A stretch of 64,000 nt of DNA from Dendrobates tinctorius (Eukaryota): assembly GCF_039654945.1 (NCBI RefSeq), contig NW_027361771.1, forward strand, positions 17,298,001 to 17,362,000. The letters are read 5' to 3'. Position numbers and translations under genes: made by a program. The first letter of the stretch is position 1, and every line of letters begins with the position of its first letter. This document shows, piece by piece, positions 10,286 through 54,562 of the stretch. Under the pieces are notes generated by a model. That model was not told the DNA's origin. It saw nothing but the letters and a program-made list of their open reading frames with translations, and searched no databases.

Positions 10286-10336
10286 ACCCCCCTCACTGCC
10301 TCACATAATATATATGTATATATATTCACACACACA

Positions 10337-10715: not shown

Positions 10716-10782
10716 TTTTAAATCTAGATGTCTCTGTGGTAATTTCCTGAAGAAGAAGCCATAGGCTTTAAAACAAGTTTAA

Positions 10783-30837: not shown

Positions 30838-31258
30838 AACTACTACAGATTTTTAACCGTGCTCCACTTAGGCCTCTGGCTCCACTGTCTCTAGTATTTC
30901 CCCTGGCCTCCAACCCCGCCAGTTGCTGCTCTGAAGTGGCGTCTGCACAATCCACACTTGTTCCTGTGTTACTGGGGCTCAGTCACGTCAGTTGATCCCC
31001 TGGTGTGTGTCCGGCAAGGTCTCCTGCTCTGTCCACATTCCCACTACTAGTAATGGGAATGTGGACAGAGCAGGAGACATTGCCGGACACACATCAGGGG
31101 ATCAACTGACGTGACTGAGCCCCAGTAACACAGGAACAAGTGTGGATTGTGCAGACGCCACTTCAGAGCAGTAACTGGCGGGGTTGGGGGCCAGGGGAAA
31201 TACTAGAGACAGTGGAGCCAGAGGCCATAGTGGAGCATGGTTACAATCAGTAGTAGTC
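30838..31258. repeat. Long loop-less palindrome 1 inside hAT
   Basis: Arms of about 210 bp, centre 31048/31049 (cccactact|agtaatggg). Confidence 0.9.
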
Positions 31259-32214
31259 TACAACCTATATAAAACTTGCTGCAAGTTGGCCTCCGCCTGC
31301 TGCATGATTGATCCTGGGCTTCAACACAGCCATATGTCGCTCGGAAGTGCTGTCCGCACAGAGAAAAACACTAGCTCCTGTGTTAGTGGGGTTTAGTAAT
31401 GCCAGCTGCTCCCCTGCTGTGTGGACAGCAAAGTCTCCTGCTCCCTCCACATTGACACAACATCCGATTTTCTACTTGTTCCAAGTAGGCCTCAGCCTGC
31501 TGAATGAATGATCCTAGGCTTCAACACAGCCAGTTGTCGCTCGGAAGTGCTGTCCGCACAGAGAAAAACACTAGCTCCTGTGTTACTGGGGTTCAGTAAC
31601 GTCAGCTGTTCCCCTGCTGTGTGGACGGCAATGTCTCCTGCTGTCTCCAAAATCACACTACATCTGGCCTCAGCCTGCTCCATGCTTGATCATGGGCTCC
31701 AACAACGCCAGTTGGTGTTCAGAAGTGCCGTCTTCACAGAGAAAAACACACTAGCTCGTGTGTTAGTGAGGTTCAGTAACATCACCTGTTCCCCTGCTGT
31801 GTAGACGGCAATGTCTCCTGCTGCCTCCACATGCAAAAAACATCAGGCCTCAGCCTGCTCCATGCTTGATCCTGGGCTCCAACAACGCCAGTTGGTGTTC
31901 AGAAGTGCCGTCTGCACAGAGAAAAATACATGCTCCAGTGTTAGTGGGGTTCAGAAACACCACGTGCTCCCCTGCTGTGTGGACGACAAAGTCTCCTGCT
32001 GCCTCCAAAATCACACTACATCTTATTTGCTACTTGCTCCAAGTAGGCCTCAGCCTGCTCTATGACTGATCCTGGGCTTCAACACAGCCAGTTGTTGCTT
32101 GGAAGTGCCATCTGCACAGAGAGAAGCACATGCTCCAGTGTTAGTGGGGTTCAGTAATGCCAGCTGCTCCCCTGCTGTGTGGACGGCAAAGTCTCCTGCT
32201 CCCTCCACAATCAA

Positions 32215-32632
32215 ACTAGTACTGATTTTTAACCGTGCTCCACTTAGGTCTTTGGCTCCACTGTCTCTAGTATTTCCCCTGGCCTCCAACCCCGCCAGTT
32301 GCTGCTCTGAAGTGGCGTCTACACAATCCACACTTGTTCCTGTGTTACTGGGGCTCAGTCACGTCAGTTGATCCCCTGATGTGTGTCCGGCAATGTCTCC
32401 TGCTCTGTCCACATTCCCATTACTAGTAGTAGGAATGTGGACAGAGCAGGAGACCTTGCCGGACACACATCAGGGGATCAACTGACGTGACTGAGCCCCA
32501 GTAACACAGGAACAAGTGTGGATTGTGCAGACACCACTTCAGAGCAGTAACTGGTGGGGTTGGAAGCCAGGGGAAATACTAGAGACAGTGGAGCCAGATG
32601 CCATAGTGGAGCACGGTTACAATCAGTAGTAG
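32215..32632. repeat. Long loop-less palindrome 2 inside hAT
   Basis: Arms of about 210 bp, centre 32424/32425, same arm sequence as palindrome 1. Confidence 0.9.
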
Positions 32633-33009
32633 TGTACAACCGATATAAAACTTGCTCCAAGTAGGCCTCAGCCTGCTGCATGATTGACACTGGGCTCCAA
32701 CATCGCCAGTTGCTGCTCAGAAGTGTCTTTGGCACGGGTACTCCCTCCTGCCCAGCCTGGTTCCAGCATGCCTGCTGTTTTCGGGGAGTGTCAACGTCAC
32801 TTTTCCACCAATACATTGTCCTGTCGTGTTGCGGTTGGGTTAGCCGAGTCTATGGTGCCTGCAGTTTAGGTGCTTCCTATGTGGGCTGCGGGTTCTGGTA
32901 ATAAAGGCTGGTTCCGTAGTGCCAATAGGACAAGCACCCCCTGTTGGACTGTGGGTTTCGGTAACTGTGGCCTGCTCGCAGCCATGCAACTTGGTTTATT
33001 ATGGGTACA

Positions 33010-34520
33010 TTCTGCTACCCATCCGGGTTCCAGCACTGTCAGCTGGTTCTCAGCAGTGCCTTTGGCCGAGGTGCCTCCTTCTCGGTATCCGAGTTCCAGC
33101 AACGTCTGCTGGTCCTTGGTAGTGTTTTGTAGCACAGGTACCTCCTGCTTAGTAACCGTGTTCCAGCACCGTTAGCTGGTCCTCGCTAGTTCCATTTGCT
33201 CTTGCAGCTTCTGCTACCCATCCGGGTTCCAGCACCGTCAGCTGGTTCTAGGCAGTGCCTTTGGCCTAGGTGCCTCCTTCTCGGTATCCGAGTTCCAGCA
33301 AGGTCTGCTGGTCCTTGGTAGTGCTTTGTAGCACAGGTACCTCCTGTTTAGCAACTGTGTTCCAGCACCGTCAGCTGGTCCACGGTTGTGCCATTGGCTC
33401 TTGTTCCTTCTGCTGGCCCTCTGGGTTCCAGCACCATCAGCTCGTCCTCGCTAGTTCCATTTGCTCTTGCAGCTTCTGCTACCCATCCAGGTTCCAGCAC
33501 CGTCAGCTGGTTCTCGGCAGTGCCTTTGGTCTAGGTGCCCCCTTCTCGGTATCTGAGTTCCAGCAATGTCTGCTGGTCCTTGGTAGTGCTTTGTAGCACA
33601 GGTACCTCCTGCTTAGTAACCGTGTTCCAGCACTGTCAGCTGGTCCACAGTTTTTCTATTGGCTGTTGTTCCATATGCTGCCCCTCCAGGTTCCAGCACT
33701 GTCAGCTGGTCCTCGCTAGTTCCATTTTCTCTTGATCCTTCTGCTAACCATCCGGGTTCCAGTACCATCAGCTGGTACTCAGCAGTTCCTCAGCCTTCTT
33801 GTACCTTCTGCTACTTTTTCAAATTCGAGCTTGTGGAAATGGTTTTTGGTTCTCAATCTGGATCTCCCTGATGACGACCCTGAAGACGACGACCCTGAAG
33901 ACCACACCGAAGAAGACCAAAAAGATGTCCCTGAAGAAGATGACCAAGAGGACAAAGAGCATGAAGACAACCACCAAGATGCAGAACAACAAGAGACAGA
34001 AGACCAAGAAGCTGAAAAACCAAACGCAGAAGAACATTAAGCATAAGACTAAAAATCAGAGTAAGCATAAGACTAAAAATCAGAGCAAATGATATTATCT
34101 AAATTAAAAGCAGAAGAAGACTAAGCAGTGTATGGGGGTGAGTCCGTTCCTCCTCGTGGTGCCCCTGGAAAATGCCTGCTGCTGCAGGTCAAACTGAACA
34201 CGGACAAATCCTGTTGTAAATCTTTTGTGACAGGCTGAACGGAAGGTGCAATCTTCAAACTTTTATAGATAACAACTACAGGAATGCCTGTCACAAATAA
34301 GAATATGAAGAAGAAGAAGAATAGGAAGAAGATGAAGAAATAGAATATGAAGACGAATAATAGTTGAATAAGAAGAATATGAAGAATGCAAAAAAAAAGG
34401 ATAATAGGAAGAAGGTGAAGAAGAAGAAGATGAATAAGGTGATGAAGAAGTTGATGAAAAAGATGCTGCTGCTGAGGATGATGAAGGAGAAAGTGTGGGA
34501 GAAGTAAAAAAGAAGGTGAA
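33010..34520. repeat. About 60-bp minisatellite followed by GAA-rich low-complexity tract in the hAT 3' region
   Basis: Units with ttccagcaccgtcagctggt; (GAA/GAT/GAC)-rich at 33870-34520. Homologous region lies inverted at 42570-44718. Confidence 0.8.
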
Positions 34521-35288: not shown

Positions 35289-37314
35289 AAGTGGAGGCTA
35301 CAGGCAACCAAGTCTGCCCCCGCCCTCTCCCTCCTCTTTTGGCTGTTCGGGGAATCTCTTCCTCAGAGCTACTCCCACCACCTTCCTGTGGCTGACGCCA
35401 TGATGGGTCAAGGACCTCATCATGTCCACTCCCCTCTTCAAGCACCGGCTGGTCCTGGGTTGTCTCGCCAGCACCGTACGCACCAGAAATTGGCAACTGA
35501 GTCTCATCATCATCTGATGCATACTGAGGTGTGCTGACCATAGGCACTGGCCCACCCGCCTCTTCAGATTCAGAGGGACAAAGCAGTTGCGCATAACTGC
35601 ATACTCCCTCTTCTTCACGCTCTAGAATGCTGCTTGGCTGGCCACATCTTTCCAAGCCAACAGATTCTGAGAACAGAAGTAAAGATTGAGATGGCTCCTG
35701 TCCAGGGCTCTCAGACTGCCTGGGCAATTTGGCAGGTGGTGAAGAGACAGATGGTTGCTCTTCAGTGCTCTGGCCTTGGGAGGATGCGGAAGTCATTGAA
35801 GTGGATGCGTTAGCTGCCATCCATCCGACAATGGCTTCAATTTGTTCATCACGCAGCAGTGGGGTACGGCGAGGTCCTACAAAGCTGCGCATGAAGGACT
35901 GTTGCCTGGTAAAAGTGGGGGATGCCGGGTCACTGGTGGCCGCAGCAGATACCGAATCCCCACGTCCTCTCCCTGCTGAATCCCCCCGTCCTCTCCCTGC
36001 TGAAACTCCACGGCCACGACCACGTGCCTTACTCCCTGCCTTCTTCATCTTGGTAGACTGATAAAGATAGGCAGAAAAGTAAAAAAGGGGTGGCTTAGTG
36101 TTCTTATTCCTGAACACCTGCTAACCAGTATAAGAAACACTAATTTGGCTAAGAGTGTGTGTACTACACTTTAATATGATCTAATGTGGCCTAGACAACT
36201 GTAAAGTGGAATGTTTGGTGAACTTTATTTCCTTTTTTTTTTTGGGTGGGGGGAAAGGAAAGGATGTGACCAAAGTTTGAAAGCTATAGTATCACAAACT
36301 TTTTGGAGCGATTACAATGCAGGAAGCTAACCTACAATGCAATTGATGAGGCTCCAAAAAATAGGGTGATACTAGCCTGGCTGGCCCTGAAGGGCACAAG
36401 CCAGCAAAAAGGCTCCTCTATCTAATCCTATATAGTGTTTGCAACCAACCAATGACAATGGATGCAGTTGGAAGCACACTATAGGAGGAAAAATCTGGCT
36501 AAATTTGCTGCAAAAAAAGGACTATGTATGAGGCAGTGACGCACGCTGAGCGGACTACAGCTAGCGGTGGCTGTAGAACACACTGCAACGTGAGGTGCAC
36601 TCACACACAGAGAGACCTATCAGACAGCCAAAAACAGTGCAGAGAAATGGGCTATAGCACTGAAAGGCTGCTGAAAGGCTCCGCTGTCCACTCCTTTAGT
36701 GTTTGCAACCAACGTATATGGATACGTATGGAAGCACACTATACGGGAGAAAAAAAAAGCAGCAATAAAAGAAAAATGTGTATGAGGCAGAGACACACGC
36801 TGGCCGGCCTACAAGCAGACGTGCCTGCAGGACACACTACACAGCGTGGGTCTGCACTCACACAGCCCTTGCAGACAGCTGTGAAAACAGCGCTGCTAGG
36901 GAAAAGCAAGCTACAGTGGTCGTTTATGTAGCCTGGATAAAGCACAATATTGTTTTTAGAATCACTATTTCTAACTGTCCCTCACAGTCTTCAACAGCAG
37001 CCTGTCCCTAACTGAATTCACAGCAGAGGGACCAGAAATGGCGGCTGCAGCGCTTTTTATAGTGCATCATGACATCATTTCAGCAGCCAATCACAGCCAT
37101 GCCAGTAGTTAACATGCCTACATGCCTAACAGGATATGCCCACACTTCTGAGGATCCCCATTGGCTGAATCAAATCGAGCGGGCTCCTAGCATTATGGGA
37201 ACTTCCGATTCCGGTATTCGATATGAAAACAGTATCGGAACTAAGTATCGGAATTCCGATACAGCTAATATCGGCCGATACCCGATACTTGCGGTATCGG
37301 AATGCTCAACACTA
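35289..37314 (-). mobile_element. Left end (2 kb) of a second, related hAT element
   Basis: TIR TAGTGTTGAGC at 37314 on the minus strand. Homologous to 26116-28090 including the transposase N-terminus MKKAGSKARGRG. Truncated at the LTR junction. Confidence 0.9.
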
Positions 37315-38314
37315 CCCACGATGCATAATTATTTGATTGCAACACAGAGAACTTGTTCATCATAGCAACTAGAAGACACTGATAATTGAAATGCATGAAT
37401 ATGCTAAATACTTAAATCATAGATATTTACAACCATTCCCCGTTACTGAAGTGAAGGGAGTGATAATAACAAAAGTGCATGCCGATACCCTCCTCATAAG
37501 CAAACACATAGATTACAGTCAAATTGAGATGTGCGCACTAGTGGACATATTATTTCCCCAGTGAGTCAGATAATAGGGAATAAGACAGTGTAGCTCCTAA
37601 GTTGATCATACGTAATTCATGGTATGCATCACCCGGTCCTATTAAAGGAAAGGCTCCACATGAAAAACAGAGTCAAAAATACCGTTTTATTAACATAATA
37701 TATAAACAAAATAGCGCAAAGACACAGTCCAAAAATGGAGTGGTAAAAAAAAAAAATAAATAAAAAATTAATCACACCAAAGGTGTAAAGCCCTGAGTAG
37801 AATGCCAAGAATGATCTAATCCGAAAGGGGATAAGTAAATGCAGGAAAAGGATCCAGAAATACAATAGAGCTCATTTCAAGCAGACCAAAATCGGCTATG
37901 AAATAGAAATTCTCCACAAGCTCCCCCCATTGGCATCTACGAAATAAATATATACTAGTAACAGAGCACACTAGGGTGAAAAACATAATTGAACAGAATA
38001 CAAGACTCATAAGAGCAATAGAATTACAGAAAAACAACTGTATATGCTCATGACATAAGTCTAGATGACAAACAAATCTGGTCAAGGATAGAGTCCTTTA
38101 GGAGAAGTCCATAGTATAATAGAAGTGCAGATCATGTTGTAAGGCGTCAAGAGACCAACTTTATCCAGGTAACACCAAAAGGAGAGATAGATCTAAATTG
38201 AAGAAACAGAGGTCGAGAGCAAGTCTTCGAATCATGAGGTCCAGAACAGAAGAAGTGTGAGACTTAATACCCAGGATCTACAAAAACAGAAGGAAACTTG
38301 TAAAACAAACCAAA

Positions 38315-40369
38315 TCAAATCTGTTTGTAATATCCAGTAAATAATAAATCTTCATTTAATCCAAGAGGGGAACGACTCCAAAGGTGGAAAATCCACCTGG
38401 ATTCACGTTTCAGCAATTCCAACGAGACGTCCCCCCCTCTAATATTGGTCTGTACAGCTTCCAACCCCAAGACTCTAATACCAGCGCTACACCCATGGTG
38501 TTCACGCAAAAAATGCAAGGCTACCGGGGTTAAGGGTTTACCTTTATCACGATCCATTTTAGCTGTATTAATATTTGAGAGGTGCTGTTGAATCCTCTTT
38601 CTAAGTTCCTGTGTGGTTTGTCCCACATAAATTTTCGGGCATCGACAAACCAATGCATATATCAAGTTTTTGGACCTGCAATTAAAGAAAGTCTTAGAAA
38701 AGACCGAGAAAGTCAAGGTGGGTAAATTGACACCCTCACTACCAACAGTAAGATGACAGATACTACAACCACCACAAGCAAAAGTCCCAACCAGGCGTGC
38801 CCCTCTATTCAAACTGGTAACAGGTCTTTTAAAGTGGCTATGACACAAGGAATCCTTCAGGGATTTTGCTTTTCTGGCAATGAGGGTGGGTTGTGGTGCA
38901 ATATGCGGAGCCAACTTGGGCTCATCAACCAGCATACCCCAGTACTTCATCAAAATGCCTCGCAAGTCATGCCAGTGATTGTTATATGTAGTGACAAGAC
39001 CCAGAGGTCTATCGCACCTGGGCGGTCGTGAACACAGCAAATCAGCCCGATTGGCACCCCTGGTTGATTGAAAAGCCCTAGAAATTACCTTATGTGGGTA
39101 GCCCCTATCTTTAAAGCGTCTTGTCAGGTCCCTGGCTTGTGTCAAAAAATCCTGTTGGGTGGAGCAATTTCTTTTTAAACGGTAAAATTGTCCTTTTGGA
39201 ATCCCGTTCTTCAGATGCTTCGGATGAAAGCTTGAGTAATGCAAAATACTGTTGGTGGAGGACGGTTTACGAAAAAGCATCCTCTTAATAGAAGACCCCT
39301 CCAAGACCAATCTCAAATCCAAAAATTCAACCGCAGATCCTGCAAGATTAGCTGTAAGATGAATGTTTAAATTATTGTTATTGAGTTTGTCAACGAAATT
39401 TTTACATTCTTCCAAAGGCCCTGACCATAATAGGAGGACGTCATCGATATAACGCCACCATTTGAATACATGATCTCTAAACTCGGTAAGTGGGTAAACA
39501 TATGTCAACTCCCACCACCCGAGAAACAGGTTCGCATAGGATGGGGCACAACGTGCCCCCATTGCTGTACCTGAAACCTGCCTAAAAAATGCCCAGTCGA
39601 ATACAAAATAATTTTTGTCCAAAATGAAATACAACAGGTCAATTAAGAATGAATCATGTTGGCGATCACCAGTGGTGTGGTGTTCCAAAAAATAGGCGAT
39701 CGCCTGGATACCCAAATCGTGTCGGATATTGGTGTACAAAGATTCGACATCCAATGAAACTAAAAACTTGTTAGGCGGGATAGTCAAATCGTTTAGCAAA
39801 ACCAAAAGGTGTGAAGTATCCTTCACATGGGAATGGAGGGTAGTGACTAGGGGCTGAAGAAAAAAATCAACATAAATACAAGGTTTCTCAAAAATGCCAC
39901 CAATACCCGACACGATGGGTCGACCAGGAGGATCTATGGTAGATTTGTGCACCTTGGGTAACATATAAAAAGTTGGAACCCTCGGGTGGTGGGTAGTGAG
40001 GAATTCTCTTTCTTTTTTACTGATGACATTGTGGGCCTGGACCATATTTAAGAGTTTATCCAATTTGGAATTAAACACTGAATTGGGATCAGAAGGAAGT
40101 TTCAAATAGAAATGGGCGTTACTCAGTTGTCTCCTAGCCTCCTTAAGGTACTGATCAGCAGGCCAGATGACAATATTGCCGCCTTTATCAGCTTCCCTTA
40201 TAACAAGATCTTTGTTGTCACTAAGATTTCTTAGGGCCTTCCTTTCAGATTTGGTAATATTGTTCTGACAATCAGGTTTAACTCTAAGTTGCTGTATGTC
40301 CCTACATACCGCATCAAAGAAAATCTGGACCACAGGAAATAGCGAGAATTTAGGAGTTGCCAGCAGCAC
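38315..40369 (-). CDS. PLE reverse transcriptase + GIY-YIG endonuclease (uninterrupted, N-terminally truncated)
   Basis: ADKG, LPKVHK, PGRPIVS, LDVESLYTNI, GTAMG, RYIDD, FLD, CGGCSIC linker, LIY..C.C.KIYVGQT..R..H, E..WI..L....P.GLN. Confidence 0.9.
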   Translation of the reverse strand: MLLATPKFSLFPVVQIFFDAVCRDIQQLRVKPDCQNNITKSERKALRNLSDNKDLVIREADKGGNIVIWPADQYLKEARRQLSNAHFYLKLPSDPNSVFNSKLDKLLNMVQAHNVISKKEREFLTTHHPRVPTFYMLPKVHKSTIDPPGRPIVSGIGGIFEKPCIYVDFFLQPLVTTLHSHVKDTSHLLVLLNDLTIPPNKFLVSLDVESLYTNIRHDLGIQAIAYFLEHHTTGDRQHDSFLIDLLYFILDKNYFVFDWAFFRQVSGTAMGARCAPSYANLFLGWWELTYVYPLTEFRDHVFKWWRYIDDVLLLWSGPLEECKNFVDKLNNNNLNIHLTANLAGSAVEFLDLRLVLEGSSIKRMLFRKPSSTNSILHYSSFHPKHLKNGIPKGQFYRLKRNCSTQQDFLTQARDLTRRFKDRGYPHKVISRAFQSTRGANRADLLCSRPPRCDRPLGLVTTYNNHWHDLRGILMKYWGMLVDEPKLAPHIAPQPTLIARKAKSLKDSLCHSHFKRPVTSLNRGARLVGTFACGGCSICHLTVGSEGVNLPTLTFSVFSKTFFNCRSKNLIYALVCRCPKIYVGQTTQELRKRIQQHLSNINTAKMDRDKGKPLTPVALHFLREHHGCSAGIRVLGLEAVQTNIRGGDVSLELLKRESRWIFHLWSRSPLGLNEDLLFTGYYKQI

Positions 40370-41134
40370 TTAAAGAGGTGCCAGCCACACTGACATCCTC
40401 AAAAATCCCCTGTGCCTGAGTGGTCCAAGCTGCCTCCCTTGCTGGTAAGTCCATGATAAGACTAGAAATAAAAGTGTGTGCCAACACTCCTCAAAAGAAC
40501 AGTGGCAAGAAAACCACCAAAACAACAAATATAATAATGAAACCAAGGAGGGCACCACCAAATACAATAGTGGGATCCTCCTGCAGTCAGCAAGAAAATA
40601 GTACCATATACATGTAGAAAAGCTACTGACCAAAAAAGCAGGGATCACCAAAAAGATACGATAATTTTTATTTGACAACCATTGACAACACAAATATAAA
40701 AACAGTTAAAAGTCATAACACATGACAGATCATACACAAGGCTCCTAATAAAGCCAAACAGGCATCCCCCATAGAGCTGAGAAAATAATTGGGCAGTGGA
40801 ACAAAGTGTATAAAAAACAAATAACCTGAGGAGAGCAGTATATATCAGAAGGTAATCAGTAACAGTGATTCAAAATATGCACGGTTCAATACATACCACT
40901 AATAATAACCTGAAAAATATCCATGTATGGACTCAAACAATGTCCAACAAAACTGCTGCAGCAATATGAGTAAAGATGCAGGGACAGGTTAAGGTAGAAC
41001 CAAGGTAAATGAGAACAAGTCGTGCCATATAAGAGATAGACACACAAAACATGCTCTACAGAAAATACACAAATAAAATTGCCCAAAATGTCCTAATAAC
41101 CCTCTTACATATGGGGGAGCTTGTGGAGTGCCCT

Positions 41135-41176
41135 GCCTTACGCGTGTCGCTACCGCAAGGTAGCTTCGTCAGGGGC
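41135..41176 (-). ncRNA. Minimal type I hammerhead ribozyme-like motif (variant core)
   Basis: GCCC-CUGACGA-A-GCUACC-UUGC-GGUAGC-GACA-CGCG-UA-AGGC. Confidence 0.65.
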
Positions 41177-42205
41177 TAGAGAGTGTGTGCAATGAAAGTC
41201 ATATAAATACATACCATAATAAGCTTGATAAGTAGCAGCTGCGAGATTTAGTCTGATCGAACGCAATGTGTGAAGGAGCAAGGACGCGCATCAGGCCAGG
41301 GCCGGATATGTAACCCGTAACTCTCCACTCCTTCCGGGTACATGCAAGAGAGACGTGGTAACTTAAACTGCGCATGTGCCGAAGGCATGGTGGTTATAGC
41401 AACTAGAGGACGCTGATGTCGGCGATTATACAACAAGAATTAATAGTCATAATAATCAAGGAACGCACATATCGGCGATACATAACGGCTTGAAAAATTT
41501 GTATCTCAATTAAGCACTTTATATGAGGGCGCGAAAGCGCATATCAAATCATGGCCGGATGTATGACCCACTCCTTACAAGTAAATACAAAAGATATGGT
41601 GGCTCATACTGCACATGTCCAAAGACATGATAATTATAGTAACCAAGAGACACCAATACCGGCAAATGTGCACAGATAGTTAGTGATCATGGTGATCAAA
41701 AAAGTCGGCAAGGATCTAAAGCAAATACTTAGATTATTTAATATTTAAGACAGTTCCCCATAGCTACAGTGCAGGGGGAAATACCAATAATGCCGCATAT
41801 TAATACCCTACATATAAAACGCACGCATAGATTGTAATAACTGCATTAGTTCTAATCATATTAATAAATAAAAGATGAGGGATGAGTAACACGCCCTAAG
41901 ATAGAGACAAAGCTATAGACCGCAAAACATAATTGCTTAATTACGGCGAGAGAGGCTTGCTCGTCATAATAGCCAGAGAACGCTGGTAACTAGAATGAGT
42001 GACCCTGCTGAGTACTCAGATCATAAATATATAAGAAAACTCGCCGTTACTTCAATACAGGTAAGGATAGCAGCAGTGGTGCATGCCGATGTCAAGCACA
42101 GAAACGCATACATAGATTACAATTGCCACATTAGTTCTAAACATCTTATTTGGTAGCGGCTAGATAACGAGCCCTAAAAGTAGGGTCAAGGCTAAGACCC
42201 ACGAT

Positions 42206-44718
42206 TAGTGTTGAGCGATACCGTTCGATACCCAAAAATATCGTATCTGATGGTATCGTCCGATACGAAAAAAATATCGGGTATCGCCGATTCCGATACC
42301 GAAAGTCCCATTCAAGTCAATGGGACTTCTGGTATCGGAATTAAAAAAAGGCCTTTATTTCCTTGTTGGCTAATTCTACATAATTGAAAACAAATAAGAA
42401 TCATGTAGAATGTATTGTGGGAGGTGGAGGAGACATTAAAAGCATAGTGGTTTATTCAAATCACATGGCATAGCATTAATTCCAATTTCTTTTTTCAAGA
42501 CGTTCGGAGTTAAAAAGATATTGACTATGTTAACTTTTTTATATTTAGTCAGATATGTATGTTTCGCAACTTCCATGCTCTTCACCTTCTTTTGTACTTC
42601 TCCCACACTTTCTCCTTCATGATCCGCAGCAGTAGCATTTTTTTCATCAACTTTTTCTTCACCTTATTCATCTTCTTCTTCTTCACCTTCTTCCCATTAA
42701 TTTTTTTTTTCCATTCTTCATATTCTTCTTATTCAGCTATTATTAATTTTCATATGCTATTTCGTCATCTTCTTCCTATTCTTCTTTTTCTTCATTTTCT
42801 TATGGTGACAGGCATTCCTGTAGTACTTATCTATAAAAGTTATAAGATTACACCTTACGTTCTGCCTGTCACAAAAGATTTACAACAGGATTTGTCCGCG
42901 TTCAGTTTGGCCTGCAGTAGCAGGCATTTTCCAGGGGCACCACGAGGAGGAACGGACTCACCCCCATTTACTGCTTAGTCTTCTTCTGCTTATAATTTTG
43001 ATTTCTTCTATGCTGATTTTTTGTCTTATGCTTAATGTTCTTCTGCTTTCTGTTCTTCTGCTTTTGCTTCTTCTGCTTCTTGTTCTTCTGTCTTTTGTTC
43101 TGTATCTTGTTGGTTGTCTTCATGTTCTTTGTCCTCTTGGTCTTATTATTTAGGGTCATATTTCTGGTCTTCTTTGGTGTGGTCTTCAGGGTCGTCATCA
43201 TCAGGGTCGTCGTCATGGAGATCAATTAGGATTACCAAAGACAATTTCAAAAAGCTTGATCTTGGAAATGTAGCAGAAGGTACAAGAAGGCTGAGAAACT
43301 GGCGAGAACCAGCAGACAGTGCTGGCACCCGGATGGGTAGCAGAAGGAACAAGAGCCAATGGCACTACCGAGGACCAACTGACGGTGCTGGACCACGGTT
43401 ACTAAGCAGAAGGTACCTGTGCTAAAAAGCACTACCAAGGACCAGCTGACGGTGCTGGACCTCGGATACCGAGATGGAGGCACCTAGACCAAAGGCTGTG
43501 GCGAGAACCAGCAGACAGTGCTGGCACCCGGATGGGTAGCAGAAGGAACAAGAGCCAATGGCACTACCGAGGACCAACTGACGGTGCTGGACCACGGTTA
43601 CTAAGCAGAAGGTACCTGTGCTAAAAAGCACTACCAAGGACCAGCTGACGGTGCTGGACCTCGGATACCGAGATGGAGGCACCTAGGCCAAAGGCTCTGG
43701 CGAGAACCAGCAGACAGTGCTGGAACCCGGGTGGGTAGCAGAAGGTACCCATTGAAAGCAAAGTAGCCAGGCCGCAAGCCGGCCGCAGTTACCGAAACCC
43801 ACAGTCCTACAGGGGGTCCATGTCCCATTGGCACTACGGATCCAGCCTTCAGTGCCAGTTCCCGCAGCCCACATAGGAGTCACCTAAACTGCAGGCACCG
43901 TAGAGTCGGCTAACCCGGCCGCAAGACGACAGGACAACGGATTGGTGGCATAGTGACCTTGACACTACCCGGAAACAGCAGGCGTGCTGGAACCAGGCTG
44001 GGCAACAGGGAGTCCCCGTGCAAAAGACACTGCCGAGAACCAGCTGGCGGTGCTGGAACCCAGATGGGTAGCAAAAGCTATAAGAGCCAATGGCACTACC
44101 GAGGAACAGCTGACGGTGCTGGACCACGGTTACTAGGCAGGAGGTACCTGTGCTAGAAAGCACTACCAAGGACCAGCTGACGGTGCTGGACCTCGGATAC
44201 CGAGATGGAGGCACCTAGGCCAAAGGCTCTGGCGAGAACCAGCAGACAGTGCTGGAACCCGGGTGGGTAGCAAAAGGTACCCATTGAAAGCAAAGTAGCC
44301 AGGCCGCAAGCCGGCCGCAGTTACCGAAACCCACAGTCCTACAGGGGGTCCATGTCCCATTGGCACTACGGATCCAGCCTTCAGTGCCAGTTCCCGCAGC
44401 CCACATAGGAGTCACCTAAACTGCAGGCACCGTAGAGTCGGCTAACCCGGCCGCAAGACGACAGGACAATGGATTGGTGGCATAGTGACCTTGACACTAC
44501 CCGGAAACAGCAGGCGTGCTGGAACCAGGCTGGGCAACAGGGAGTCCCCGTGCCAAAGACACTGCCGAGAACCAGCTGACGGTGCTGGAACCCAGATGGG
44601 TAGCAAAAGCTACAAGAGCCAATGGCACTACCGAGGAACAGCTGACGGTGCTGGACCACGGTTACTAGGCAGGAGGTACCTGTGCTAGAAAGCACTACCA
44701 AGGACCAGCTGACGGTGC
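42206..44718 (-). mobile_element. Right end (2.5 kb) of a related hAT element
   Basis: TIR TAGTGTTGAGC at 42206. Inverted homologue of about 32700-34893, with a 532-bp higher-order duplication. Truncated by the PLE at 44719. Confidence 0.9.
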
Positions 44719-45939
44719 TGTGTTTGCTTATGAGGAGGGTATCGGCATGCACTTTTGTTATTATCACTCCCTTCACTTCAGTAACGGGGAATGGTTGTAA
44801 ATATCTATGATTTAAGTATTTAGCATGGTCATGCATTTCAATTATCAGTGTCTTCTAGTTGCTATGATGAACAAGTTCTCTGTGTTGCAATCAAATAATT
44901 ATGCATCGTGGGTCTTAGCCTTGACCCTACTTTTAGGGCTCGTTATCTAGCCGCTACCAAATAAGATGTTTAGAACTAATGTGGCAATTGTAATCTATGT
45001 ATGCGTTTCTGTGCTTGACATCGGCATGCACCACTGCTGCTATCCTTACCTGTATTGAAGTAACGGCGAGTTTTCTTATATATTTATGATCTGAGTACTC
45101 AGCAGGGTCACTCATTCTAGTTACCAGCGTTCTCTGGCTATTATGATGAGCAAGCCTCTCTTGCCGTAATTAAGCAATTATGTTTTGCGGTCTATAGCTT
45201 TGTCTCTATCTTAGGGCGCGTTACTCATCCCTCATCTTTTATTTATTAATATGATTAGAACTAATTCAGTTATTACAATCTATGCGTGCGTTTTATATGT
45301 AGGGTATTAATATGCGGCATTATTGGTATTTCCCCCTGCACTGTAGCTATGGGGAACTGTCTTAAATATTAAATATTCAGGATCTAAGTATTTGCTTTAG
45401 ATCCTTGCCGACTTTTTTGATCACCATGATCACTAACTATCTGTGCACATTTGCCAGTATTGGTGTCTCTTGGTTACTATAATTATCATGTCTTTGGACA
45501 TGTGCAGTATGAGCCACCGTATCTTTTGTATTTACTTGTAAGGAGTGGGTCATACATCCGGCCCTGATTTGATATGCGCTTTCGCGCCCTCATATAAAGT
45601 GCTTAATTGAGATACAAGTTTTTCAAGCCGTTATGTATCGCCGATATGTGCGTTCCTTGATTATTATGACTATTAATTCTTGTTGTATAATCGCCGACAT
45701 CAGCGTCCTCTAGTTGCTATAACCACCATGCCTTCGGCACATGCGCAGTTTAAGTTACCACGTCTCTCTTGCATGTACCCGGAAGGAGTGGAGAGTTACG
45801 GGTTACATATCCGGCCCTGGCCTGATGCGCGTCCTTGCGCCTTCACACATTGCGTTCGATCAGACTAAATCTCGCAGCTGCTACTTATCAAGCTTATTAT
45901 GGTATGTATTTATATGACTTTCATTGCACACACTCTCTA

Positions 45940-45981
45940 GCCCCTGACGAAGCTACCTTGCGGTAGCAACACGCGTCGGGC
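45940..45981 (+). ncRNA. Hammerhead ribozyme-like motif in 5' pLTR (G12 mutated)
   Basis: GCCC-CUGACGA-A-GCUACC-UUGC-GGUAGC-AACA-CGCG-UC-GGGC. Confidence 0.55.
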
Positions 45982-46661
45982 AGGGCACTCCACAAGCTCC
46001 CCCATATGTAAGAGGGTTATTAGGACATTTTGGGCAATTTTATTTGTGTATTTTCTGTAGAGCATGTTTTGTGTGTCTATCTCTTATATGGCACGACTTG
46101 TTCTCATTTACCTTGGTTCTACCTTAACCTGTCCCTGCATCTTTACTCATATTGCTGCAGCAGTTTTGTTGGACATTGTTTGAGTCCATACATGGATATT
46201 TTTCAGGTTATTATTAGTGGTATGTATTGAACCGTGCATATTTTGAATCACTGTTACTGATTACCTTCTGATATATACTGCTCTCCTCAGGTTATTTGTT
46301 TTTTATACACTTTGTTCCACTGCCCAATTATTTTCTCAGCTCTATTGGGGATGCCTGTTTGGCTTTATTAGGAGCCTTGTGTATGATCAGTCATGTGTTA
46401 TGACTTTTAACTGTTTTTATATTTGTGTTGTCAATGGTTGTCAAATAAAAATTATCGTATCTTTTTGGTGATCCCTGCTTTTTTGGTCAGTAGCTTTTCT
46501 ACATGTATATGGTACTATTTTCTTGCTGACTGCAGGAGGATCCCACTAATGTATTTGGTGGTGCCCTCCTTGGTTTCATTATTATATTTGTTGTTTTGGT
46601 GGTTTTCTTGCCACTGTTCTTTTGAGGAGTGTTGGCACACTCTTTTATTTCTAGTCTTATT

Positions 46662-47426
46662 ATGGACTTAGCAGCAAGGGAGGCAGCTTGGACCACTCAG
46701 GTACAGGGGATTTTTGAGGATGTCAGTGTGGCTGGCACCTCTTTAAGTGCTGCTGGGAAGGACTCAGATTTCGATGTTATTTCTAGAGAACTTGTCAGTT
46801 TACATAAAACTCTCACTAAGACATGGTGGAACATCAAAAGTCTTGATGAGTACAAAAGGTTTGGTCTTGTCCCAAGGGGACTTAGGGTGCAGATTTTCCC
46901 GGCTTGGGAGGTTGATTGTTCCTTTCGTAAGAAATGGGAAGATGGCCTTTTTTCATGTTCAACTATTATCATGAATTTACTCATCGAACATGATCGCACC
47001 CTACTAGCTGATTTAAAAGATAAAATTAGAATATGTGAAACTAAGCTACAAAAATTCGACATGAAAATCTTGGTCGAACCTTTTTTGGGCTGTCTTAAGA
47101 CCACAATTGACCTTTATGAGAACGAGATTATTGGGGGTAAGAAGAATAAATTTAAACGGGATCAGATGGACTTTAACAATGGAAAGGCTTATAAATGGGT
47201 CCATAGGGGCAATAAGAGACGTCCTGCCCCGGTCAACAACACTAACAGGGTTAATCTCTCGGTGAATGAGTCCCATTCCAGTGATTTTTTATCATCGGAA
47301 CAGAGCGACCTAGAAGGCGCCACAGGAGGGGTAGACGTGGCAGGAGAAGCCACAAGGAGGACCAAGAGACATCGCCAATGGTCTCCCAAATTTCGGAGAG
47401 ACACCAGACAGAACAGGAGGCATTAG
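46662..47426 (+). CDS. PLE ORF1 (254 aa from ATG)
   Basis: Intact ORF with WWN..SL..Y....LVPRGLRV motif (resembling PLE N-terminal domains), helical/coiled region and basic tail. Confidence 0.75.
   Translation: MDLAAREAAWTTQVQGIFEDVSVAGTSLSAAGKDSDFDVISRELVSLHKTLTKTWWNIKSLDEYKRFGLVPRGLRVQIFPAWEVDCSFRKKWEDGLFSCSTIIMNLLIEHDRTLLADLKDKIRICETKLQKFDMKILVEPFLGCLKTTIDLYENEIIGGKKNKFKRDQMDFNNGKAYKWVHRGNKRRPAPVNNTNRVNLSVNESHSSDFLSSEQSDLEGATGGVDVAGEATRRTKRHRQWSPKFRRDTRQNRRH
47285..47291 (+). promoter_or_regulatory. Candidate -1 ribosomal frameshift heptamer T TTT TTA
   Basis: In ORF1 frame (GAT TTT TTA). The -1 frame opens right after TGA at 47282-47284 and continues into ORF2. Confidence 0.6.
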
Positions 47427-49818
47427 CCCCCTGTGTGGCAACTTTGTCTAAATCTTCTGATACGGCACACCAACCTGAGGGTAAGTTGTCAATTATTAAT
47501 CTATCTAACTATAATCTGTCACAAATGGAGTACTCTATTTTACAACGTGGACTATCTTTTTGTCCTATGAATACTCTAGACAAATTTTTGTTTGTTAAAG
47601 ATTTATATTTATTTTGCAGACAACTCACCTTCAAATTACTATATCATCAACCCACGATTGTGGACACCTTACCGATGGAGGATAGACAAACATTTAGAGA
47701 TCTACTTTCTCTTTTGGAAGAAAATGATAACCCTGCTACTAGAAACCGTTTCACAGGACGATTACCCTCCCAGGCAACTCCTAAATTCTCGCTATTTCCT
47801 GTGGTCCAGATTTTCTTTGATGCGGTATGTAGGGACATACAGCAACTTAGAGTTAAACCTGATTGTCAGAACAATATTACCAAATCTGAAAGGAAGGCCC
47901 TAAGAAATCTTAGTGACAACAAAGATCTTGTGATAAGGGAAGCTGATAAAGGCGGCAATATTGTCATCTGGCCTGCTGATCAGTACCTTAAGGAGGCTAG
48001 GAGACAACTGAGTAACGCCCATTTCTATTTGAAACTTCCTTCTGATCCCAATTCAGTGTTTAATTCCAAATTGGATAAACTCTTAAATATGGCCCAGGCC
48101 CACAATGTCATCAGTAAAAAAGAAAGAGAATTCCTCACTACCCACCACCCGAGGGTTCCAACTTTTTATATGTTACCCAAGGTGCACAAATCTACCATAG
48201 ATCCTCCGGGTCGACCCATCGTGTCGGGTATTGGTGGCATTTTTGAGAAACCTTGTATTTATGTTGATTTTTTTCTTCAGCCCCTAGTCACTACCCTCCA
48301 TTCCCATGTGAAGGATACTTCACACCTTTTGGTTTTGCTAAACGATTTGACTATCCCGCTAACACGTTTTTAGTTTCATTGGATGTCGAATCTTTGTACA
48401 CGAATATCCGACATGATTTGGGTATCCAGGCGATCGCCTATTTTTTGGAACACCGCACCACTGGTGATCGCCAACATGATTCATTCTTAATTGACCTGTT
48501 GTATTTCATTTTGGACAAAAATTATTTTGTATTCGACCGGGCATTTTTTAGGCAGGTTTCAGGTACAGCAATGGGGGCACGTTGTGCCCCATCCTATGCG
48601 AACCTGTTTCTCGGGTGGTGGGAGTTGACATATGTTTACCCACTTACCGAGTTTAGAGATCATGTATTCAAATGGTGGCGTTATATCGATGACGTCCTCC
48701 TATTATGGTCAGGGCCTTTGGAACAATGTAAAAATTTCGTTGACAAACTCAATAACAATAATTTAAACATTCATCTTACAGCTAATCTTGCAGGATCTGC
48801 GGTTGAATTTTTGGATTTGAGATTGGTCTTGGAGGGGTCTTCTATTAAGACGACGCTTTTTCGTAAACCGACCTCCACCAACAGTATTTTGCACTACTCA
48901 AGCTTTCATCCGAAGCATCTGAAGAACGGGATTCCCAAAGGACAATTTTACCGTTTAAAAAGAAATTGCTCCACCCAACAGGATTTTTTGACACAAGCCA
49001 GGGACCTGACAAGACGCTTTAAAGATAGGGGCTACCCACATAAGGTAATTTCTAGGGCTTTTCAATCAGCCAGGGGTGCCAATCGGGCTGATTTGCTGTG
49101 TTCACGACCGCCCAGGTGCGATAGACCTCTGGGTCTTGTCACTACATATAACAATCACTGGCATGACTTGCGAGGCATTTTGATGTAGTACTGGGGTATG
49201 CTGGTTGATGAGCCCAAGTTGGCTCCGCATATTGCACCACAACCCACCCTCATTGCCAGAAAAGCAAAATCCCTGAAGGATTCCTTGTGTCATAGCCACT
49301 TTAAAAGACCTGTTACTAGTTTGAATAGAGGGGCACGCCTGGTTGGGACTTTTGCTTGTGGTGGTTGTAGTATCTGTCATCTTACTGTTGGTAGTGAGGG
49401 TGTCAATTTACCCACCTTGACTTTCTCGGTCTTTTCTAAGACTTTCTTTAATTGCAGGTCCAAAAACTTGATATATGCATTGGTTTGTCGATGCCCGAAA
49501 ATTTATGTGGGACAAACCACACAGGAACTTAGAAAGAGGATTCAACAACACCTCTCAAATATTAATACAGCTAAAACGGATCGTGATAAAGGTAAACCCT
49601 TAACCCCGGTAGCCTTGCATTTTTTGCGTGAACACCATGGGTGTAGCGCTGGTATTAGAGTCTTGGGGTTGGAAGCTGTACAGACCAATATTAGAGGGGG
49701 GGACATCTCGTTGGAATTGCTGAAACGTGAATCCAGGTGGATTTTCCACCTTCGGAGTCGTTCCCCTCTTGGATTAAATGAAGATTTTTTATTTACTGGA
49801 TATTACAAACAGATTTGA
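47285..49818 (+). pseudogene. PLE ORF2 RT + GIY-YIG (1-bp deletion near 48359, TAG at 49186)
   Basis: IINLS..L..GLSFCP, DKG and RT motifs, GIY-YIG. Lesions are evident by comparison with the minus copy. Confidence 0.9.
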
Positions 49819-51830
49819 TTTGGTTTGTTTTACAAGTTTCCTTCTGTTTTTGTAGATCCTGGGTATTAAGTCTCACACTTCTTCTGTTCTGGACCTCATG
49901 ATTCGAAGACTTGCTCTCGACCTCTGTTTCTTCAATTTAGATCTATCTCTCCTTTTGGTGTTACCTGGATAAAGTTGGTCTCTTGACGCCTTACAACATG
50001 ATCTGCACTTCTATTATACTATGGACTTCTCCTAAAGGACTCTATCCTTGACCAGATTTGTTTGTCATCTAGACTTATGCCATGAGCATATACAGTTGTT
50101 TTTCTCTATTGCTCTTATGAGTCTTGTATTCTGTTCAATTATGTTTTTCACCCTAGTGTGCTCTGTTACTAGTATATATTTATTTCGTAGATGCCAATGG
50201 GGGGAGCTTGTGGAGAATTTCTATTTCATAGCCGATTTTGGTCTGCTTGAAATGAGCTCTATTGTATTTCTGGATCCTTTTCCTGCATTTACTTATCCCC
50301 TTTCGGATTAGATCATTCTTGGCATTCTACTCAGGGCTTTACACCTTTGGTGTGATTAATTTTTTTTTTTTTTTTACCACTCCATTTTTGGACTGTGTTT
50401 TTGCGCTATTTTGTTTATATATTATGTTAATAAAACGGTATTTTTGACTCTGTTTTTCATGTGGAGCCTTTCCTTTAATAGGACAGGGTGATGCATACCA
50501 TGAATTACGTATGATCAACTTAGGAGCTACACTGTCTTATTCCCTATTATCTGACTCACTGGGGAAATAATATGTCCACTAGTGCGCACATCTCAATTTG
50601 ACTGTAATCTATGTGTTTGCTTATGAGGAGGGTATCGGCATGCACTTTTGTTATTATCACTCCCTTCACTTCAGTAACGGGGAATGGTTGTAAATATCTA
50701 TGATTTAAGTATTTAGCATATTCATGCATTTCAATTATCAGTGTATTCTAGTTGCTATGATGAACAAGTTCTCTGTGTTGCAATCAAATAATTATGCATC
50801 GTGGGTCTTAGCCTTGACCCTACTTTTAGGGCTCATTATCTAGCCGCTACCAAATAAGATGTTTAGAACTAATGTGGCAATTGTAATCTATGTATGCGTT
50901 TCTGTGCTTGACATCGGCATGCACCACTGCTGCTATCCTTACCTGTATTGAAGTAACGGCGAGTTTTCTTATATATTTATGATCTGAGTACTCAGCAGGG
51001 TCACTCATTCTAGTTACCAGCGTTCTCTGGCTATTATGATGAGCAAGCCTCTCTCGCCGTAATTAAGCAATTATGTTTTGCGGTCTATAGCTTTGTCTCT
51101 ATCTTAGGGCGTTACTCATCCCTCATCTTTTATTTATTAATATGATTAGAACTAATGCAGTTATTACAATCTATGCGTGCGTTTTATATGTAGGGTATTA
51201 ATATGCGGCATTACTGGTATTTCACCCTGCACTGTAGCTATGGGGAACTGTCTTAAATATTAAATATTCAGGATCTAAGTATTTGCTTTAGATCCTTGCC
51301 GACTTTTTTGATCACCATGATCACTAACTATCTGTGCACATTTGCCGGTATTGGTGTCTCTTGGTTACTATAATTATCATGTCTTTGGACATGTGCAGTA
51401 TGAGCCACCGTATCTTTTGTATTTACTTGTAAGGAGTGGGTCATACATCTGGCCCTGATTTGATATGCGCTTTCGCACCCTCATATAAAGTGCTTAATTG
51501 AGATACAAGTTTTTCAAGCCGTTATGTATCGCCGATATGTGCGTTCCTTGATTATTATGACTATTAATTCTTGTTGTATAATCGCCGACATCAGCGTCCT
51601 CTAGTTGCTATAACCACCATGCCTTCGGCACATGCGCAGTTTAAGTTACCACGTCTCTCTTGCATGTACCCGGAAGGAGTGGAGAGTTACGGGTTACATA
51701 TCCGGCCCTGGCCTGATGCGCGTCCTTGCTCCTTCACACATTGCGTTCGATCAGACTAAATCTCGCAGCTGCTACTTATCAAGCTTATTATGGTATGTAT
51801 TTATATGACTTTCATTGCACACACTCTCTA

Positions 51831-51872
51831 GCCCCTGACGAATCTACCTTGCGGTAGCGACACGCGTCGGGC
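51831..51872 (+). ncRNA. Hammerhead ribozyme-like motif in 3' pLTR
   Basis: GCCC-CUGACGA-A-UCUACC-UUGC-GGUAGC-GACA-CGCG-UC-GGGC. Confidence 0.6.
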
Positions 51873-52475
51873 AGGACACTCCACAAGCTCCCCCATATGT
51901 AAGAGGGTTATTAGGACATTTTGGGCAATTTTATTTGTGTATTTTCTGTAGAGCATGTTTTGTGTGTCTATCTCTTATATGGCACGACTTGTTCTCATTT
52001 ACCTTGGTTCTACCTTAACCTGTCCCTGCATCTTTACTCATATTGCTGCAGCAGTTTTGTTGGACATTGTTTGAGTCCATACATGGATATTTTTCAGGTT
52101 ATTATTAGTGGTATGTATTGAACCGTGCATATTTTGAATCACTGTTACTGATTACCTTCTGATATATACTGATCTCCTCAGGTTATTTGTTTTTTATACA
52201 CTTTGTTCCACTGCCCAATTATTTTCTCAGCTCTATGGGGGATGCCTGTTTGGCTTTATTAGGAGCCTTGTGTATGATCTGTCATGTGTTATGACTTTTA
52301 ACTGTTTTTATATTTGTGTTGTCAATGGTTGTCAAATAAAAATTATCGTATCTTTTTGGTGATCCCTGCTTTTTTGGTCAGTAGCTTTTCTACATGTATA
52401 TGGTACTATTTTCTTGCTGACTGCAGGAGGATCCCACTATTGTATTTGGTGGTGCCCTCCTTGGTTTCATTATTA

Positions 52476-53165
52476 GACTTCAATATTATCATAACAAGCT
52501 TGAGTTTGCAAAACACGATGAAACCTGGACAATAGAAGGTTGGAAATGGGTGATTTGGAGCAATGAGATGACAGTCAATAGAAAGGGCTCTGTTAGTGGT
52601 AAATGAGTTTGAAAGTTTTCTTAAATTTCTCAATCCATTATCTTTTTCCCTTATTTCTTTCAGTTTCAGTGGAGGAAGCCTGATGATATGGGGTTGTTTC
52701 ATAGCCAAAGGTGTTGAATCCTCGATCTGGATTAATGGTTGTCTCAATGCTGGTCTATATGTGAGTATCCTACAGGATGAGTTACTTTGTACACTCATGC
52801 ACTTTGGGTATGAAAACAACAACAGTATTCCAGCACGAAAATGATCAAAAACATACGTCAAGATTGGCGAAGAAATGGTACAATGAAAATTAAGTAGAGG
52901 TGCTGAATTGGCCCCCGCAGTCTCCAGACCTCAACCCAATCAAACATTTGTGGGTAGAGTTGAAGAAAAAACTATATGTAGCCAAGTGAGTCAACCAACT
53001 TTAGGAGTGTGTAGAAGAGAGCAGGGATCAGATTTCGGTCGAGACATGTTTCAATCTCATCAAGAGTATGCCCAGAAGGATTCAGATAGTGTTGAAACCA
53101 CAGGTAGATTTACAAATTACTAACAAAATAATAAAAATCTAAATTTATATTTTTAAGGAGCAAAA
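52476..53165 (+). mobile_element. Tc1-like transposase fragment
   Basis: [41 protein letters not shown]. Confidence 0.8.
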
Positions 53166-53499
53166 ACACGTTAGATTATACTCACCGGAGGGAGTGGTCC
53201 GGTCCGATGGGTGTCGGGGTCTGGGTCCGGCGCCTCCCATCTTCATACGATGTCACGGTCCGATGGGTGTCGCGGTCTGGGTCCGGCGCCTCCCATCTTC
53301 ATACGATGTCATCCTCTTCTTCCCTTCCACGCACTGCTCTGCCCCAGTCACACAGGAAGAGTGATGCAAAGTGTTTAGCTAACAGCCTATTGATGTCACC
53401 CATAATATTAGCAGGCGGGCTGCTCAGCACTTTATGTATACACCTCACAGAGACAAACACTCCAGTACACTAAGCCAACAAAAAGAGGCCTGTCTGCAT

Positions 53500-54562
53500 C
53501 CTGCAAAAAATGATAAAAAGTGCAATAAAAGATGAAAAAAGAATGCATATGATCAATACATTAAATGAGGTATTGGTTAATATTTTGGCCAAAATAGATA
53601 AGCTCGCAACCCAACGTCAAAGGTCCTCATGCTTGCGAGTCCTAACACTAATTTCAAAAATGGCTTGTATAGAAAAATTCAAAAAAACACATACCATAAT
53701 GATACAGCCTTCCCAAAACCTGTCAGATGACAAATGCACTAGCAGGATGCAGCAGTCCCCCTTTATCAGTTAGGATTTGCAAGCATGAGAACCTTTGGCA
53801 TGGAGTTGCAAGCTTATCTATTTTGGCCACAATATTAGCCAATATCTCATTTAATGTATTTATCACATGCAAAAATTTTTTCATCTTTTATTGTGCATTT
53901 TATCATTTTTTCAGAACCCTCCCAGAAGAAGTTACTGTGAAACGGCATCGGGGTTGGGGATGTGTAGCGGCCTTTTATCTGCTGGTTTACTTCACTATCT
54001 TTATCAATCTCAGGTGATGTAGTCTTTTGCTTTACTTACTTCTCTGTCACTATTGATCAAAAATGTCTTAACCTTTGTATGATTGTACTTAGGACAATGT
54101 CATTTCCTTATTTATACTGGAGCTTATAGTCCGCCCTCAACAAATTCCTTCAAATTAGACTTAGTCCTTTGCACTAAACATTGTATGCATTATGCCTTTT
54201 GATACTAAGTATTATTCTCTACAATAAGCATTGTTTGCACTTTGCCATTATTCTGAATTTGCATCTGATAAAGGATTTGTTTATATGGACAGAACTAAAC
54301 CTGTTGACATTTATGATAGGATTCTGGGCATGAGATTGCATTTATGAATATACTTGAAATGATTTGTGTGCATCAGCTTGCTTCAGTGTTATGAGCCTTA
54401 TATTAGATTGCCTAGGGGGGCGCAGCCTTACTATGGATTACACACATCCCCTCTTTGGAGGTTTATTCCCACCCTGTTTTCCAGTCTTCCCCCTACCCCT
54501 TTTCTTCTGTTTATGTATATTTTAAATCATGTGCCAATAAATTGCTACTTTTTAAAGAAACT
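53500..54562 (+). mobile_element. Possible non-autonomous PLE-derived (retrozyme-like) element with an inverted 5' segment
   Basis: About 130-bp inverted repeat (53507-53637 vs 53780-53910), degenerate hammerhead-like motif at 53915-53955, AATAAA near the end. Confidence 0.35.

Follow-up and report, generated by a model that had tools for sequence, protein, structure and literature searches.

A conserved U6 run at the −1 overlap between ORF1 and the reverse transcriptase-endonuclease frame of Neptune-type Penelope-like elements in Dendrobates tinctorius: a probable programmed frameshift site

Described Penelope-like elements and known slippery sites

Penelope-like elements (PLEs) are the sister group of telomerase. 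Programmed −1 frameshifting is a device typically met in retroviruses and in LTR elements. In the accessible parts of Craig 2021 (PMC8557442) and Frangieh 2024 (PMC11167929) the canonical endonuclease-bearing (EN+) PLEs are described as single-ORF elements, whereas the element reported here has a separate ORF1 and a reverse transcriptase (RT) frame at −1. The Poseidon element PAc of Anolis is given in the excerpt of PMC11167929 as a single ORF with a modelled N-terminal extended helix (residues 27-173) fused before the RT. The predicted ORF1-RT-EN product discussed below resembles this helix-RT fusion, although homology of the helix to ORF1 would be a guess.

According to the legend of Fig. 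1 in Craig 2021 (PMC8557442), which leaves the clade unnamed, a frameshift with a pseudoknot can set ORF1 of a PLE apart, and a frameshift in the present element is not the first for a PLE, since one is already drawn there for some PLE. Like the PLE in that drawing, the element reported here has an upstream ORF1, coiled-coil in kind, and a change of frame before the RT. We take such frameshifted PLEs to be the rotifer Athena/Terminon elements, reportedly treated by Arkhipova et al. in 2017. Athena elements are telomeric and lack an endonuclease, unlike the vertebrate EN+ element of this work, in whose own lineage no pseudoknot was found.

Two-ORF Neptunes are also on record. A killifish Neptune is listed with ORF1 at 73-492 and ORF2 at 666-2669, the mechanism being left unstated in the accessible part of PMC12602865, and the 173-nt gap between these coordinates amounts to a −1 offset. 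In contig CL27, inspected by eye in an excerpt of the supplement to the same paper, the end of an esterase-like ORF1 overlaps the RT frame by four codons at G UUA AAU, and the RT frame carries the RT N-terminal motif with no ATG before it. The excerpt of PMC5408684 speaks of esterases in Neptune-like PLEs from fish and molluscs. No programmed shift is mentioned in the accessible parts of PMC3846280, PMC6431247, PMC13159263 and bioRxiv 10.64898/2026.07.22.740005, nor is Penelope in that of PMC5009743. The literature search found no description of a frameshift in a Neptune or in any amphibian PLE, though subscription papers and Repbase, which lay outside the search, may hold one; a metagenome scan for the junction pattern gave 109 matches, none of them confirmed.

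A known counterpart of the junction is the U UUU UUA slippage site of HIV-1 gag-pol and of alphavirus 6K/TF (PMC2569925 and PMC5009743, both in part), with which the present site shares the heptamer, its phase, the frame-0 Phe-Leu and the −1 frame overlap. In these accessible texts the efficiencies of the viral sites have been measured, and a hairpin or pseudoknot usually lies 3′ of them, whereas shifting in the frog element is predicted from sequence; the frog element differs further in that U UUU UUG is common in its family, while the textbook slippery consensus requires the last letter Z not to be G (PMC2569925, in part), and in that its ORF1 has no capsid match. The alphavirus site was itself identified by a similar conservation argument and later confirmed by mass spectrometry, as given in the accessible part of PMC2569925. 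Both general statements from which the earlier note on this DNA had started, that U UUU UUA is an HIV-1 type site and that EN+ PLEs are usually described as single-ORF, agree with the accessible parts of PMC2569925 and Craig 2021.

A two-gene element in the window

The window, that is, the whole 64,000-nucleotide stretch of D. tinctorius DNA analysed, contains an element which, as judged from its sequence, is a two-gene Neptune-type PLE in which the RT-EN frame opens at −1 while ORF1 is still running. It is 5.9 kb long and is accompanied by a partial tandem repeat and an inverted partner copy. The upstream pseudo-LTR-like repeat (44719-46584, forward strand, as are the features below unless stated otherwise) pairs at 98.9% identity with the downstream partial tandem copy at 50612-52475, the period being 5893, and the inverted 5′-truncated partner copy, which does not include the junction, lies on the reverse strand at 37314-40361 and matches 47773-50806 at 98.7%. 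A hammerhead-like motif, a motif match only, is located 5′ of ORF1 at 45937-45990 with a CTGACGA core at 45944. A second such motif with a different core is found at 41174 on the reverse strand; an Rfam search of 36000-54000 detected neither of them, with zero matches at E≤1, hammerhead included. Other repeats of the window, at 7700-13600, 30700-34500 and 43000-44700, comprise arrays in which CCCTAA variants resembling telomere repeats and units of 380-780 nt occur, nested 200-nt inverted repeats, and 199/532-nt tandem units together with a Glu-rich simple repeat adjoining the element.

ORF1 codes for 254 aa and occupies 46662-47426, from the ATG at 46662 to the TAG at 47424-47426. Near its end it reads GAT TTT TTA, so that T TTT TTA, a heptamer of the form X XXY YYZ when read in frame with ORF1, stands at 47285-47291 with the RT-EN frame at −1, exactly as the earlier note had read it; its further statement that the −1 frame is closed by a TGA directly 5′ of the site (47282-47284) and is then open for 31 codons of an Arg-rich linker up to the first ATG was confirmed as well. 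The TGA stands directly before the run in 37/55 copies of the window lineage and is not general. From the site on, the −1 frame reads FFIIGTERPRRRHRRGRRGRRSHK, reaches its first ATG at 47378-47380 after these 31 codons and enters the RT motif KLSIINLS from 47483. The stretch 47285-47426 is therefore a dual-coding overlap, with an acidic-then-basic ORF1 tail in frame 0 and the Arg-rich linker in frame −1, to judge by the stop counts and pN/pS values given below.

Downstream of the site the window copy is damaged by a frame break near 48360 and by a TAG at 49186-49188, where the inverted partner has 681 open codons. The first part of ORF2, consisting of the linker and the RT N-terminal motifs, spans 47285-48373 and ends at the copy-private frame break; the RT core and thumb follow at 48268-49188 (PF00078, E 4e-6, below the curated cut-off), ending at the copy-private TAG, and a Cys-rich linker with CGGCSIC and a GIY-YIG endonuclease occupy 49189-49818 (PF01541, E 2e-6).

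The RT with a C-terminal GIY-YIG domain is the hallmark of EN+ PLEs, and the arrangement of pseudo-LTR, partial tandem and inversion (44719-46584 repeated directly at 50612-52475, plus the truncated partner in inverted orientation) is likewise of the PLE type. The usual single-ORF description does not apply, there being two overlapping frames, at −1 in 71/104 near and 91/98 far loci (see below), which does not exclude membership in the EN+ PLEs because two-ORF Neptunes are on record. A CX2-5CxxC motif between RT and EN marks Neptune and is shared with Nematis (Craig 2021, PMC8557442, in part), and it is matched by the CGGCSIC in 49189-49818. The Cys-rich linker and EN region also resembles, when compared by eye, the Neptune-1_Ac row in the available part of the Craig 2021 supplement. 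Placement of the element in Neptune is thus probable and goes by the linker motif and this likeness rather than by an RT tree with named references; a PDB sequence search with the RT gave nothing relevant. The named relatives among the protein matches are from frogs only. Families of ORF1-bearing Neptunes are very abundant and partly very young, each query giving about 11,000-12,000 first-look candidates, many with identical scores.

The junction in near and far relatives

A DNA search of the source genome gave 43 matches, 30 of which were retrieved and 28 of which span the junction; a T run of at least six followed by A is present in 28/28 of the latter and is longer than six in 4. Two larger samples were drawn from protein searches, with no near or far locus picked for the presence of the heptamer. 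The near loci are 110 of 150 scored matches (30 taken automatically and 80 hand-picked from lower ranks), of which 104 were scorable and 6 were without an RT start. The far loci were found with the distant frog proteins P0020 and P0023 as queries; 100 of 294 matches were taken, 60 automatically and 40 by hand, and 98 were scored. Together they represent five lineages with an ORF1 identity of 26-50% between lineages and with different flanks on both sides of the run. The copies share ancestry and their counts are not independent events, so the five lineages are the more honest sample size.

The offset from ORF1 to the RT is −1 in 71/104 near loci, the others being in frame (17) or at +1 (16), and −1 in 91/98 far loci, with 4 at +1 and 3 in frame, although the ORF1 of the far loci is only about 24-34% identical to that of the window. 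We read the 33/104 near loci that are off −1 as decay. Among the 82 near copies with exactly six T, the frame from the site on is −1 in 66, +1 in 13 and in frame in 3. The alignment of family members for the heptamer and the −1 offset, which the earlier note had proposed as a check, thus found the arrangement kept across lineages about 26% identical in ORF1. Outside this genome, 10/11 ORF1 relatives (39-49% identical) end in D-F-L followed by a separate tail of their own, and the eleventh, like two proteins annotated in Hyla sarda and Ranitomeya imitator, runs through D-F-F-I into the Arg-rich linker and the RT. This read-through, compared between proteins and not between codons, looks like the junction predicted for a −1 shift. 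Among four more distant named proteins the tail Phe-Leu is present in 3 and absent in P0021.

That the element might be a normal single-ORF PLE, one T having been lost in the window copy or in its assembly, could be suspected from the other private lesions of this copy and from the 17/104 near loci in frame. The split state is nevertheless the majority in every lineage and ORF1 has a conserved tail and stop of its own, while the in-frame copies are scattered tips, so this explanation is refuted unless the assembly systematically shortens T7 to T6, and we give it next to no probability. A T-run indel private to this copy, the possibility set out beforehand as contrary to the frameshift reading, is ruled out with it: the relatives are not one continuous ORF, and the longer runs sit on scattered tips of the tree.

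The length and phase of the run are nearly constant. Near loci have six T in 82 cases, more in 19 and fewer in 3 (n=104), that is, at least six in 101, and 97 have it in phase. Within the overlap, 85/91 far loci and 55/70 near loci have a T6A/G in phase, 10 of the 15 misses in the latter having the run together with a later private stop. The control rate of T6A/G is 30 in 199,980 bases, or 0.023 per 150 nt. In the window copy alone, which has 7 T6A/G runs in its ORF1-ORF2 stretch, the heptamer is weak evidence, with a chance of about 0.1 of falling in phase within the overlap, or 0.02 by the control background; it is the conservation in the family that places it far beyond chance. The run is followed by G (U UUU UUG) at about a fifth of the sites, namely 24/104 near and 15/91 far. 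In one T6G lineage 11/14 copies have a sister at least 98% identical, by which this U6G lineage appears to be young and multi-copy.

Transcriptional slippage, in which RNA polymerase II or the RT of the element would add one U and so give a continuous ORF in some of the RNAs, would agree with the longer runs in 19/104 near copies (11 of them T7, of which 8 are in frame) and with the fused proteins of other frogs. Such slippage would be independent of codon phase, but 97/104 near copies and five lineages have the run in phase; the T7 copies found no subfamilies, and among the 98 far loci there are 0 with T7 and 3 with T8 or T9. Six T is, moreover, short for slippage by polymerase II. On the tree, the 19 rows with longer runs need 18 changes against a shuffled mean of 17.8, and because the two values match, the longer runs are regarded as scattered tips and not as a fused subfamily. 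Slippage of this kind is considered very improbable. In several copies (L044, L045, L056, L070, L081, L084, L104) the run has gained 4-7 bases at once, to T10-T13, which suggests stuttering by the RT of the element or an assembly error.

The spelling of the run is as restricted as its phase. Phe-Leu pairs of the tail are spelled T TTT TTR in 81/87 near and 90/91 far loci (171/178 together), compared with 30/180 control Phe-Leu pairs from the ORF1 core and the RT of the same loci, in which 40 spellings are used. The run is therefore conserved beyond the coding need. A pyrimidine tract would be another reason for a run of T, and it is conceivable that the run belongs to a 3′ splice site, with a spliced RNA bringing an upstream start into the RT frame. 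Spliceosomal introns are known in PLEs (legend of Fig. 1 in Craig 2021), and in three far lineages the letters at the site, TTTTTTAG, resemble a splice acceptor, with AG immediately after the run (TAG in 37/39, 28/28 and 4/4 copies, in one phase per lineage). In the window lineage, however, the first AG is that of CAG, AAG or GAG in three different phases, and in the young T6G lineage the TAG is missing. C ought to be acceptable in a pyrimidine tract, as it is for Phe-Leu coding, yet only 7/178 tail pairs are spelled with C, and splicing has no need for a fixed phase relative to ORF1. The check for spliced copies covered 2 of the 43 DNA matches plus two others, and the two copies that start just past the site have different flanks and are inversion-type 5′ truncations, not spliced copies. 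We consider splicing unlikely. Contigs from three sequencing runs presumed to be RNA, compared with the window and with locus L147, neither bridged the site nor had a joint ending at it, and so speak neither for nor against splicing. The two truncated copies, L022 and L023, are independent of each other and both begin at window position 47299-47300, 8 nt past the site; the shared start point may be due to chance or may be a stop point of the RT.

The overlap itself behaves as coding sequence in two frames. In 63 clean copies, the 138 nt after the site contain 4 stops in frame 0, 11 in frame −1 and 113 in frame +1, and the 138 nt before the site contain 547 in the −1 frame. Between the site and the first ATG, pN/pS among 42 representatives of under 92% identity takes the values 0.54 (frame 0), 0.69 (frame −1) and 1.11 (frame +1), and the value for frame −1 upstream of the site is 1.0-1.3. 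On these values frames 0 and −1 are both constrained, the latter modestly and more weakly than frame 0. Beside this, the octamer AGGAGGGG at 47324-47331, 33-40 nt past the site, is 93-100% conserved in the 42 representatives, including at positions free to vary silently in both frames, and is possibly a protein-binding or pairing element.

Another reading is that ORF2 is translated independently, through reinitiation or leaky scanning or from a non-AUG codon, with the run kept for another reason. In its favour, there is a −1-frame ATG before the RT motif in 41/55 copies of the window lineage, and in two far lineages there is one upstream of the site. At 47378, though, the ATG shares letters with a Trp codon that is conserved in ORF1, and is itself not conserved, its counterpart in relatives being GTG or TTG; 85/85 far copies have no ATG from the site to the RT motif, and in one lineage the open −1 frame is free of ATG throughout (28/28). 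The −1 frame is, furthermore, already constrained before the ATG, the distance from the site to the ORF1 stop ranges over 45-156 nt, stop and start do not overlap in a fixed way, and the spelling of the run would be left without an explanation. Independent translation is thus distinctly improbable.

Programmed −1 ribosomal frameshifting on the family-conserved U6 run is therefore considered to be the best explanation of the junction, with a probability of roughly 0.8.

Stimulatory structure, the ORF1 protein and the predicted product

Two short stems had been proposed 3′ of the site in the earlier note, GCGACC..GGCGC (47305-47310 with 47316-47320) and GCCAC..GTGGC (47319-47323 with 47337-47341). 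Both are present as letters within 47305-47341, overlapping each other at 47319-47320, but they found no support as a stimulator. The GCCAC/GTGGC pair varies freely among relatives, and the small GCG/CGC hairpin consists of three pairs that are forced by the two reading frames. Folding of the region downstream of the site did not produce the expected structure: in five windows the folds of the window copy (z from +0.57 to −0.98) and those of 42 representatives (mean z from −0.07 to −0.32) were no better than shuffles. Alignment folds and a helix scan, the latter also serving as the probe for pseudoknots, found no long conserved helix near the site in the window lineage, and a scan for long-range duplexes found a strong partner for the arm at +6..+22 in 0/35 representatives. 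A 5-bp pairing of 47328-47332 with 47381-47385 is present in 97% of cells, but there is no case in which both of its sides have changed, and it lies 36 nt away from the site at its start; it is unconvincing as a stimulator. Ribosomes queuing at the ORF1 stop do not fit as a general stimulus either, the site being 45-156 nt from that stop.

One far lineage is different in that a stem of 11-15 bp is predicted 6-9 nt after the site in 3/3 representatives, with z from −2.4 to −6.4. In these copies with the U6G site (L171, L172 and L227; G000 C159, C202 and C37) the +6..+22 arm pairs with a partner about 65-85 nt downstream which falls inside the RT N-terminal motif, and in L203 that coding region is engaged in a comparable pairing of 12 bp. 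The pairings of L171/L172/L227 and of L203 are regarded as candidate stimulators. Single representatives of two other far lineages also score below −2, as does the upstream control now and then.

The ORF1 protein was modelled with a pLDDT of 71.7 as four helices and a disordered tail. A helical hairpin or coiled-coil takes up about residues 37-172; in the disordered tail behind it, S-S-D-F-L falls on the slip site and is followed by an acidic patch and then a basic end. No Pfam family was found at E≤0.1 and no CCHC knuckle is visible in the sequence; a structure search with the model returned generic helical bundles only (best Z 8.0), with no capsid among the top 50 matches, and an ESM Atlas search gave no usable match for ORF1 or P0020. 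The comparison with gag-pol made in the earlier note accordingly stands for the layout and not for the protein, which is modelled as a helical hairpin, and ORF1 may be gag-like in role at most.

In all lineages the ORF1 tail ends with a short basic motif (47390-47423 in the window; L141-L240), which is ETRQNRR-like in the window lineage and M-x-T/L-R-S-Q or Y-x-L-R-N/T-R in the far lineages. This basic end may be comparable with the anchors by which LANA, IL-33 and foamy-virus Gag bind the acidic patch of the nucleosome, and it would be carried by the unshifted ORF1 protein only.

The proposed course of translation is as follows. Most ribosomes would finish ORF1 and release the 254-aa protein with its helical domain and acidic and basic tail, and a minority, in which UUU is occupied by tRNA-Phe and UUA or UUG by tRNA-Leu, would slip back by one base on U UUU UUR after about residue 209, the slippage being either tandem or single. 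The shifted product would be an ORF1-RT-EN protein of about 1,050 aa, made up of 209 residues of ORF1 and about 843 more, in which the Arg-rich linker replaces the ORF1 tail, and the ratio of ORF1 to enzyme would in this way be held at a high value. The earlier suggestion of an abundant ORF1 protein accompanied by a rarer ORF1-RT-EN fusion is upheld as regards the −1 junction, which is conserved at U6A, and the making of the fusion by frameshifting remains a matter of probability.

A conserved slip site would give the true N-terminus of the enzyme, which is needed for expressing active Neptune protein, and would imply control of the ORF1-to-enzyme ratio in a TPRT-type element; the family offers many natural variants, with U6A and U6G and with and without a stem. 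It may be suggested, tentatively, that two-gene Neptunes across animals make their enzyme by −1 frameshifting, with U6A/G in frogs and the same −1 overlap in a fish Neptune having an unrelated esterase-like ORF1, and that many lineages shift without nearby RNA structure. If so, ORF1 would swap a chromatin-anchor-like tail for the RT-EN in frogs, database entries for Neptune RTs would be mis-started systematically, with internal Met codons taken as the beginning, and many hundreds of natural frameshift cassettes would be present in a vertebrate genome.
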